The notes under the pieces were generated by a model that saw only the letters and a list, made by a program, of their open reading frames with translations, had not been told where the DNA came from and ran no database searches. Below are positions 30,401 to 31,383 of a stretch of 64,000 nucleotides of DNA, piece after piece; position 1 is the stretch's first letter; each line of letters begins with the position of its first letter. The translations under genes and the position numbers were made by a program. The stretch is from Escherichia coli (lineage in GTDB: Bacteria; Pseudomonadota; Gammaproteobacteria; Enterobacterales; Enterobacteriaceae), in the NCBI RefSeq assembly GCF_029227855.1, contig NZ_CP074356.1. One strand, 5' to 3'.

Positions 30401-31002
30401 AGGGGAACCAAATTTTGCCCACCTATTTAACACACCCCTACATTATGAACAAGGAATTTAGGATTTTTATCATTTATTAAAATGTTTCCTACTTGACTAT
30501 TAAGACCAAAAACAATTTATCAATTGATTATTTCCTTGTAAAAAAAGAACGTATGACTATGTTATTAATAAATAAAACACGCAAATAATGGTGATGTTGT
30601 TTTGTGATTAACTATTTAAGTGCGGCATAATAAACAGGTTGATAATTTCTATGTAAAGAAGAGGAAAATAATAAAATTTTAGCGGTGACTATTGAATGAT
30701 GTGATAGTTGTGGTGTTGATTATTTCTGGTAATGAATGCGGAATTAAATCTGGCCGGATTGTATTTTTGCTATATCTATTTTTCAGGAGATTATTATTAA
30801 ATAGAAAAATAACAATGGTGATTATCTCCGGTTGAGCTGGAGTCACGTATGCCAGCGAGTGCTTTCTTCCGGGCCTTCCTTCACTTCAGAGAAAGAGCCT
30901 ATGGAAAAGAGGCAATCATCAGGCTTTTTTTGAGTCATATGCGCCGATAATCAACTGTCTTGAACGTAAAAATTATGGAGCAACATGATGCTACGATTCA
31001 TT

Positions 31003-31228
31003 TCACTCTTCGTTCTTTCTGAGCATTGCGTTCAGGATGGTCAGCAATTTACGCATACAGTCAACCAGCGCCACTTTTTTGGTTTTCCCGGCTGCTGGCA
31101 GATGCATGTAAAACGCCTTTATCACCGGATTAAACCAGGTTACCACAAGCGCTGCCATGTGCAGGGCTGCTCTTGCCTCCGTACGCGCACAGGCGTCGTT
31201 CGGCCAGCAGATATGTGTGGGATAACAG
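31003..31228 (-). pseudogene. 3' remnant of an IS110-family transposase gene (C-terminal about 70 codons only)
   Basis: Minus-strand frame reads ...[54 protein letters not shown], resembling the conserved C-terminus of IS110/IS1111-type transposases; frame closes immediately upstream. Confidence 0.5.
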
Positions 31229-31339
31229 GGATGTTATGTGAACTGAACTGTGTTTTGTTAGCGGGGGATGTTTATTGATGATTCGGGAGTGTTTAAGACC
31301 TGATGGCGTTATGCTCCCAAGTTTATTTTATATAAAGAT

Positions 31340-31372
31340 CCAAAAGCAAAAACCCGCCTTGTGAGCGGGTTC
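31340..31372 (-). terminator. rho-independent terminator downstream of pheV
   Basis: Stem aacccgc / gcgggtt with 7 nt loop; the minus strand reads the hairpin followed by a T run. Confidence 0.6.
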
Positions 31373-31383
31373 TTAAGAATTAG

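Follow-up and report, generated by a model that had tools for sequence, protein, structure and literature searches.

The window, i.e. the whole 64-kb stretch of E. coli chromosomal DNA that was analyzed, contains gsp/yghD, the kps capsule locus, pheV, yqgA, and speC in this order. Its 30700-31480 region is 100% identical to that of E. coli strain MRSN346647. A gene for tRNA-Phe(GAA) is present in an intact form on the minus strand at 31384-31459 (ARAGORN; Rfam, 68 bits). This gene is identified as pheV, because it is flanked by yqgA and speC. Its 3' end points toward kpsF, which is located on the minus strand at 29209-30192, and the gap between kpsF and pheV is only 1,191 bp. According to the PGAP annotation of the identical stretch, region 1 (kpsFEDUCS) and kpsMT are located between pheV and gsp/yghD, which assigns the locus to the E. 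coli group 2 (kps) capsule loci. In the window, kpsM, kpsT, and region 2 (GT4, GT29-like, and galE) at 14102-21922 are co-directional with kpsFEDUCS (kpsS at 22248-23480). The block of region 3 and region 2 is inverted, as compared to the canonical group 2 layout of CFT073. Similar co-directional loci, referred to as atypical K loci (KL112), have been described in a 2026 preprint (bioRxiv 10.64898/2025.12.15.689991), and the window differs from them in that the gsp operon is retained.

The homology of the window to MG1655 (K-12) ends at the stop codon of yghD (13135) and starts again at 31336, so that the kps-specific DNA is assigned to 13136-31335. On the pheV side, the K-12 homology extends from 37821 down to 31336. 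This position is 48 bp past the 3' end of pheV and just after the pheV terminator, indicating that the kps-specific DNA starts after the terminator of the tRNA gene and not within the tRNA gene. The DNA at 31336-31383 (minus strand) is therefore shared with K-12. It includes the pheV terminator (31347-31375), which is the only convincing signal in the terminator and promoter scan.

The DNA at 30193-30951 (minus strand) is the PR1 regulatory region upstream of kpsF and is not derived from an insertion sequence. Its composition profile is AT-rich, with a GC content of 22-34% across 30450-30850. PR1 has been mapped 225 bp upstream of kpsF (PMC5738388), and the distance from the mapped PR1 start to the IS110 fragment described below is about 535 bp. 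A patch at 30801-30951 appears to be hypervariable, but only apparently so, because the signal is a 12-bp deletion in one strain. The identical RefSeq stretch also contains a copy of IS200C tnpA at ~41055-41564 between yggN and ansB, which is unrelated to the IS110 remnant.

Remnant of an IS110-family element

The DNA at 30952-31192 (minus strand), which adjoins the PR1 region, is a 5'-truncated remnant of an IS110-family element. It is 87.8% identical in DNA sequence to a near-full-length E. coli element (L002, NZ_CM134210.1) over 30952-31172, and 87-89% identical to plasmid-borne relatives over 30947-31192, which take the homology out to about 31192. The inner limit of the homology is placed at about 31172-31192, which corresponds to element position ~925-944. 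The remnant represents the last ~240 bp, or ~21%, of an element of ~1,164 bp (roughly positions 925-1164).

A remnant of the C-terminal region of an IS110-family transposase was proposed at this site in the preliminary description, and this proposal is confirmed by the protein comparisons. When the sequence is compared with the protein of the near-full-length relative by tblastn, residues 253-322 of 322 are aligned with 79% identity (E 2e-31). When the 70-residue tail is used as a query with its two stop codons restored, it matches positions 282-342 of the 343-position NCBIfam profile NF033542 (IS110 family RNA-guided transposase; E 2.4e-8). Named IS110 transposases are retrieved down to E 1e-27 in a search of 5.8 billion proteins, and the relatives in the protein alignment are from Klebsiella, Salmonella, Pantoea, and Sodalis. 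The match to Pfam Transposase_20 (PF02371) is weak (E 0.018) and under its cut-off, because only the final 26 positions of the profile are represented. The Pfam and NCBIfam scores are both under the curated cut-offs for whole proteins, because only a fragment is present. Homology to NF033542 and PF02371 places the DNA in the IS110 family as a sequence-derived remnant. The same assignment is already given in RefSeq, in which 31003-31185 is labeled by PGAP as a pseudogene ('IS110 family transposase; incomplete; missing N-terminus'). The same pseudogene is annotated upstream of kpsF in CFT073 (HGG68_RS16950) and MRSN346647 (BSZ13_RS20510), with 98-100% identity and with the same position and junctions.

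The decayed coding tail, as defined by tblastn, the protein alignment, and NF033542, is located at 30976-31185 (minus strand) and comprises 70 codons from the 3' end of the 322-codon transposase gene. On the minus strand, no stop codon interrupts the frame between 31233 and the TGA codon at 31003-31005, and this frame encodes the peptide quoted in the preliminary description. The ancestral frame ran ten codons past this stop codon, to a TAA codon at 30973-30975. Thus, two nonsense codons have been acquired, one at W313 (TGG to TGA, 31003-31005) and the other at Y316 (TAC to TAG, 30991-30993). The fragment had been placed at 31003-31228. It is real, but the IS-derived DNA extends from 30952 to about 31192, and 31193-31233, in which the frame is open yet no similarity is detected, is rejected as transposase-derived DNA.

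An open reading frame of 97 amino acid residues on the plus strand (30985-31278) had been regarded as the antisense shadow of this fragment. This view holds. The frame has no Pfam match, is left unannotated by PGAP, and is broken in two of the five copies that keep the full length, by a frameshift in L007 and by a stop codon in L008. The corresponding region of the sixth copy is truncated at 31236. This spurious frame and the minus-strand frame of 51 residues (31003-31158) should both stay uncalled as genes.

The limits of the element were set by comparing L002, in which the site is occupied, with L005, in which it is empty (1660-1661). The element of L002 is 1,164 bp long, has a CT core, and consists of a non-coding left end of 174 nt, a gene of 322 codons, and 21 nt after the stop codon. 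The protein of the near-full-length relative contains a DEDD domain (PF01548) at residues 9-155 and PF02371 at residues 196-278. The remnant retains the non-coding right end at 30952-30972 (minus strand), which is intact to its last base (...TTTTTACGTTCAAGACAGTTG) and is the same in four independent copies. The window matches the element up to this last base, 30952; the four independent copies are identical through ...CAAGACAGTTG and then diverge at once. This exact match to the terminus, followed by divergence, indicates that the right-end junction is the original insertion junction. The 2-nt core that flanks IS110 insertions is positioned at 30950-30951 (minus strand), where the window has AT and three relatives have CT. 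The AT dinucleotide may therefore be a mutated form of the CT core.

All parts of the element that are involved in catalysis are missing. No similarity to the relatives is detected upstream of residue 253 in any frame, and the DEDD domain is therefore absent. The catalytic serine region, ...NRDSGTMRGRR... in the relatives, precedes the start of the homology in the window. Because the remnant starts at residue 253, after the DSG motif, no catalytic part is left. The left end, which is 174 nt long in the relative, is also missing, so that only the right end is represented, in an exact form. The tRNA is the sole match in the Rfam scan of 30200-31600, in which neither a guide RNA nor any other RNA family is detected. 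The fuller relative also gives no match to a bridge-RNA family in Rfam. Because the catalytic parts, the left end, and the guide RNA are all missing, the remnant cannot transpose.

The element had been described as IS110/IS1111-type. The assignment to the IS110 family stands, but the IS1111 type is unlikely. In the IS1111 subgroup, a long non-coding region is located 3' of the transposase gene, the guide RNA is encoded at the right end, and the inverted repeats are subterminal. In the element examined here, the distance from the ancestral stop codon to the terminus is just 21 nt, and the long non-coding region of the relatives (174 nt) is located at the left end. No terminal inverted repeats are evident at the junctions of the relatives. 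The short right end and the long left end of the relatives fit the IS110 subgroup and not IS1111. The layout of the ends, core, and domains of the relatives fits that of IS621. The remnant shares with this IS621-like subgroup the C-terminal 70 residues (79-83% identity) and a right terminus that is the same as that of the fuller copies. It differs from members of the subgroup, which have PF01548, PF02371, a CT core, and a structured left end of 174 nt, in that only the last ~21% is kept.

An intact parent element with more than 90% identity is not present in the E. coli genomes, plasmids, or protein collection searched. The best relatives that are not linked to kps are 87-89% identical in DNA and about 80-85% identical in protein. 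The nearest named insertion sequence, ISEc32, is only ~73% identical in DNA, and no specific ISfinder name is assignable to the remnant. The element of L002 (3961-5124) has inserted into a CP4-like island, with a zinc-ribbon gene on either side, and this copy has an internal stop codon. Its left end of 174 nt folds stably (z = -2.75), consistent with a guide RNA. When a 1.5-kb stretch containing this element and its flanks is used for the search, 647 genomes match at least 80% of it, and much of the ranking, as sampled, consists of records with the unoccupied site.

The truncated element is fused to an orphan segment of 143 bp (31193-31335, strand unspecified), which has no transposase similarity and is not present in K-12. 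In E. coli genomes, this segment is found only together with the IS110 remnant, and in plasmids only one full match is found, in a record carrying kps. In strain P15-25 (L006, NZ_CP080233.1), the homology is lost at 31236, inside a 16-bp palindrome of the orphan segment, ATAACAGGGATGTTAT (31222-31237), which points to a second, lineage-specific rearrangement point beside the scar.

Distribution and decay of the remnant in E. coli

When the remnant is scored as present if at least 80% of 30990-31310 is matched, it is detected in 1,613 of 5,426 complete E. coli genomes, with 95-100% identity. Its position upstream of kpsF is conserved in about 1,550-1,600 of these genomes. The 5' end of kpsF, PR1, and the remnant form a contiguous block in 1,554 genomes. 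The copies of six strains were compared. The right-end junction (30951/30952) is identical in all six. The inner junction (~31192) is common to the five copies that retain that stretch; the sixth, that of P15-25, is cut at 31236. The stop codon at W313 is present in all six copies, and that at Y316 in five of them, the exception being L009, which has CAG. One of the compared copies contains a 1-bp deletion. Variable sites among the six copies account for 4.1% of the remnant, 1.6% of kpsF, and 3.7-4.9% of the neighboring non-coding DNA. These six sequences suggest that the remnant decays neutrally.

The neutral decay of the remnant is compared here with the possibility that the fragment has been co-opted, in such a way that the 51-residue minus-strand frame or the 97-residue plus-strand frame encodes a functional small protein, or that the DNA is a cis-regulatory element for kps region 1. 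In favor of co-option, about 1,600 genomes retain the fragment, with 95-100% identity, and the fragment is located about 760 bp upstream of the start codon of kpsF and is co-directional with kps. However, it is 2.5 times more variable than kpsF and its variability is about that of the non-coding DNA on either side. A frameshift is present in one copy, a stop codon in the plus-strand frame in another, and nonsense codons in the ancestral frame. One strain has lost the fragment, and in another the fragment is displaced, both by the insertion events described below. Moreover, neither a promoter-like site at the right end of the insertion sequence nor an Rfam match is detected, and the mapped PR1 start is distant from the fragment (PMC5738388). 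Co-option is thus extremely unlikely. A cis role of the fragment, for example as a spacer that separates the H-NS-regulated PR1 region from the pheV terminator, would be compatible with the sequence.

Two cases of partial coverage of the remnant were inspected, and both represent secondary IS events. In strain 2/0 (L010, 6119-8370), an insertion of ISEc10 (IS21 family) separates PR1 from the remnant. Strain GN03507 (L011, 5376-7693) contains ISEc22 of the IS66 family and has lost the remnant. Other insertion sequences repeatedly target the kpsF-pheV intergenic region.

A 35-mer and a 24-mer that represent the truncation junction have no match in the species-representative genomes, a result that says nothing on the age of the scar outside E. 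coli.

The pheV site with and without islands

Gene order in which the remnant, pheV, and yqgA are directly adjacent, as in the window, is found in only 209 genomes. The preliminary description reported no integrase gene at the tRNA gene, and indeed none is annotated by PGAP in the 100%-identical RefSeq stretch, which covers 10700-51480 of the window. It also suggested a search for a pheV 3'-end repeat at the far border of the island. Within the 64-kb window, such a repeat is not found: a 23-mer with up to 3 mismatches and a 16-mer with up to 2 mismatches match pheV alone. A tRNA-integrated island with a P4-like integrase is characterized by an integrase gene next to the tRNA gene and by a second copy of the tRNA 3' end at its distal border, and the window has neither.

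In CFT073, APEC E16002, and strain 317, which were aligned with the window, the homology continues through 31336-31383 into the first 19-23 nt of pheV and is then replaced by island DNA. The break is at 31402 or 31406, and partial pheV repeats adjoin the flank of the remnant in L003, L007, and L008. The repeat of 19-23 nt of the pheV 3' end beside the remnant flank represents the distal attachment-site repeat of the island. The attachment core of pheV, which is duplicated in the island-bearing strains, is 31384-31402/31406. CP4-like island genes follow the remnant flank in the sampled genomes without the direct adjacency, which are CFT073, APEC E16002, strain 317, and strain 2/0. The island of APEC E16002, which contains ireA and papGII, ends in a tyrosine recombinase gene 52 kb from the remnant. 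APEC O1:K1:H7 strain E16002 (L016/L017, NZ_CP126944.1, 838000-915000) has two tandem islands at pheV; the first contains ireA, papGII, tia, and the terminal tyrosine recombinase gene, and the second is CP4-like and contains the defense genes MADS, Abi, and AIPR.

In K1 strains, an island of ~52 kb with a P4-like integrase gene, intB, and 22-bp repeats has been reported downstream of kpsF in most genomes, whereas an intact pheV without a pathogenicity island downstream of kpsF has been reported in 36% of the complete CC95 genomes (PMC10272209). At least 14 island excisions have been inferred within CC95, and the capsule locus has been reported to have no integrase of its own (PMC10272209). The window represents the unoccupied state of the pheV attachment site, which has already been described for K1 strains (PMC10272209). 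In this lineage, an island may never have been inserted at this site, or one may have left it through precise excision mediated by an integrase. As compared to PAI-V and PAI-CFT073-pheV, which are inserted in the same tRNA gene, the window has the same attachment core in the empty-site state. As compared to the pheV islands with a P4-like integrase, it has no island, no integrase gene, and no direct repeat, and kps is located outside the integrase-mobilized unit. The kpsF-upstream pseudogene of other strains is the same fragment as that of the window, and differs from it only in what is located between the fragment and pheV: an island in most strains, and none here.

These comparisons bear on the interpretation offered in the preliminary description, according to which a deletion or rearrangement mediated by IS110 in this lineage removed the integrase gene and most of a formerly larger pheV island, and could also have produced the unusual co-directional kpsMT arrangement. 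This interpretation accounts for the 5'-truncation of the element, which means that deletion or rejoining did happen beside the remnant, and for the lack of an integrase gene and a pheV repeat in the window; secondary IS events in the same intergenic region of other strains are also compatible with it. However, the truncation junction and right-end junction are the same in the island-bearing strains CFT073, APEC E16002, and strain 317. In the comparison with such strains, which the preliminary description itself proposed, the island is located outside the scar, between pheV and the 19-23-bp pheV repeat. In addition, both pheV and its terminator are intact, their collinearity with K-12 extends to 31336, and the fragment lacks a catalytic domain. 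In CFT073, the same IS110 remnant accompanies the canonical convergent kps order, indicating that the scar is unrelated to the orientation of kpsMT and leaves the unusual kps arrangement unexplained. The trimming of a larger island by IS110 in this lineage is therefore scarcely credible. The right-end junction, and the inner junction where it is kept, are shared by strains with and without a pheV island, indicating that the scar is older than island gain and loss.

Origin of the scar at the edge of the kps locus

The remnant is very probably an inert fossil of an IS110 element, which predates the spread of the group 2 kps locus and plays no part in the present gene order. An element of the IS110 subgroup, which is of the RNA-guided DEDD/serine recombinase type, would have inserted upstream of the promoter region of kps region 1 and left the junction at 30951/30952. 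Later, deletion or joining-in of unrelated DNA would have taken the left ~920 bp, including the left end, the DEDD domain, and the catalytic serine region. The lost left end is where the guide or 'bridge' RNA would have been encoded, as it is in the IS110 subgroup. The last ~240 bp would have been left and fused to the 143-bp orphan segment. This truncation probably occurred before group 2 kps spread through E. coli, so that the scar would travel as a fixed, pheV-proximal flank of kps and decay neutrally. The order of these ancient events, like the neutrality, is reconstructed here as the most probable one.

A more ancient version of the trimming model is that kps came in an integrase-bearing pheV island, and that truncation of IS110 deleted the end with the integrase gene and fixed kps at this site before E. 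coli diversified. The kps-specific DNA starts only 48 bp past pheV, the IS fragment and the 143-bp orphan segment are located exactly at the edge of kps, and the capsule locus itself lacks an integrase (PMC10272209), all of which are in accord with this version. However, a repeat of the pheV 3' end is detected neither at the gsp-side border nor elsewhere in the window, the boundary is located after the terminator of the tRNA gene and not inside the tRNA gene, and no trace of an integrase gene is left according to the PGAP annotation. This version is therefore unlikely. It is very unlikely that the terminator, the orphan segment, and the IS110 right end together represent a footprint of kps capture by RNA-guided IS110 recombination or by an IS-bounded composite unit, or that their present role is to influence the exchange and expression of the capsule locus by acting as a homology handle or an insulator.

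The remnant is of little biological importance. It is useful as a landmark, in that it shows where the fixed, pheV-proximal edge of the group 2 capsule locus is located. The pheV pathogenicity islands insert and excise outside this edge, so that kps located beside pheV without an integrase gene represents a normal unoccupied site and is no evidence of deletion. A RefSeq annotation of the remnant already exists, and both configurations of pheV, empty and occupied, are already published; no open-access paper on IS110 was found that also mentions kps, kpsF, or pheV.

An E. coli-type kps locus is also present in NZ_LR890315.1 (L015, 'Klebsiella oxytoca plasmid 4'), a circular record of 29,040 bp. 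It contains the remnant at 16458-17048 with 98.6% identity, together with co-directional kpsMT, distal pathogenicity-island genes, and IS5. This record could represent contamination or misassembly, or it could represent an IS-bounded circular unit that carries the capsule locus.
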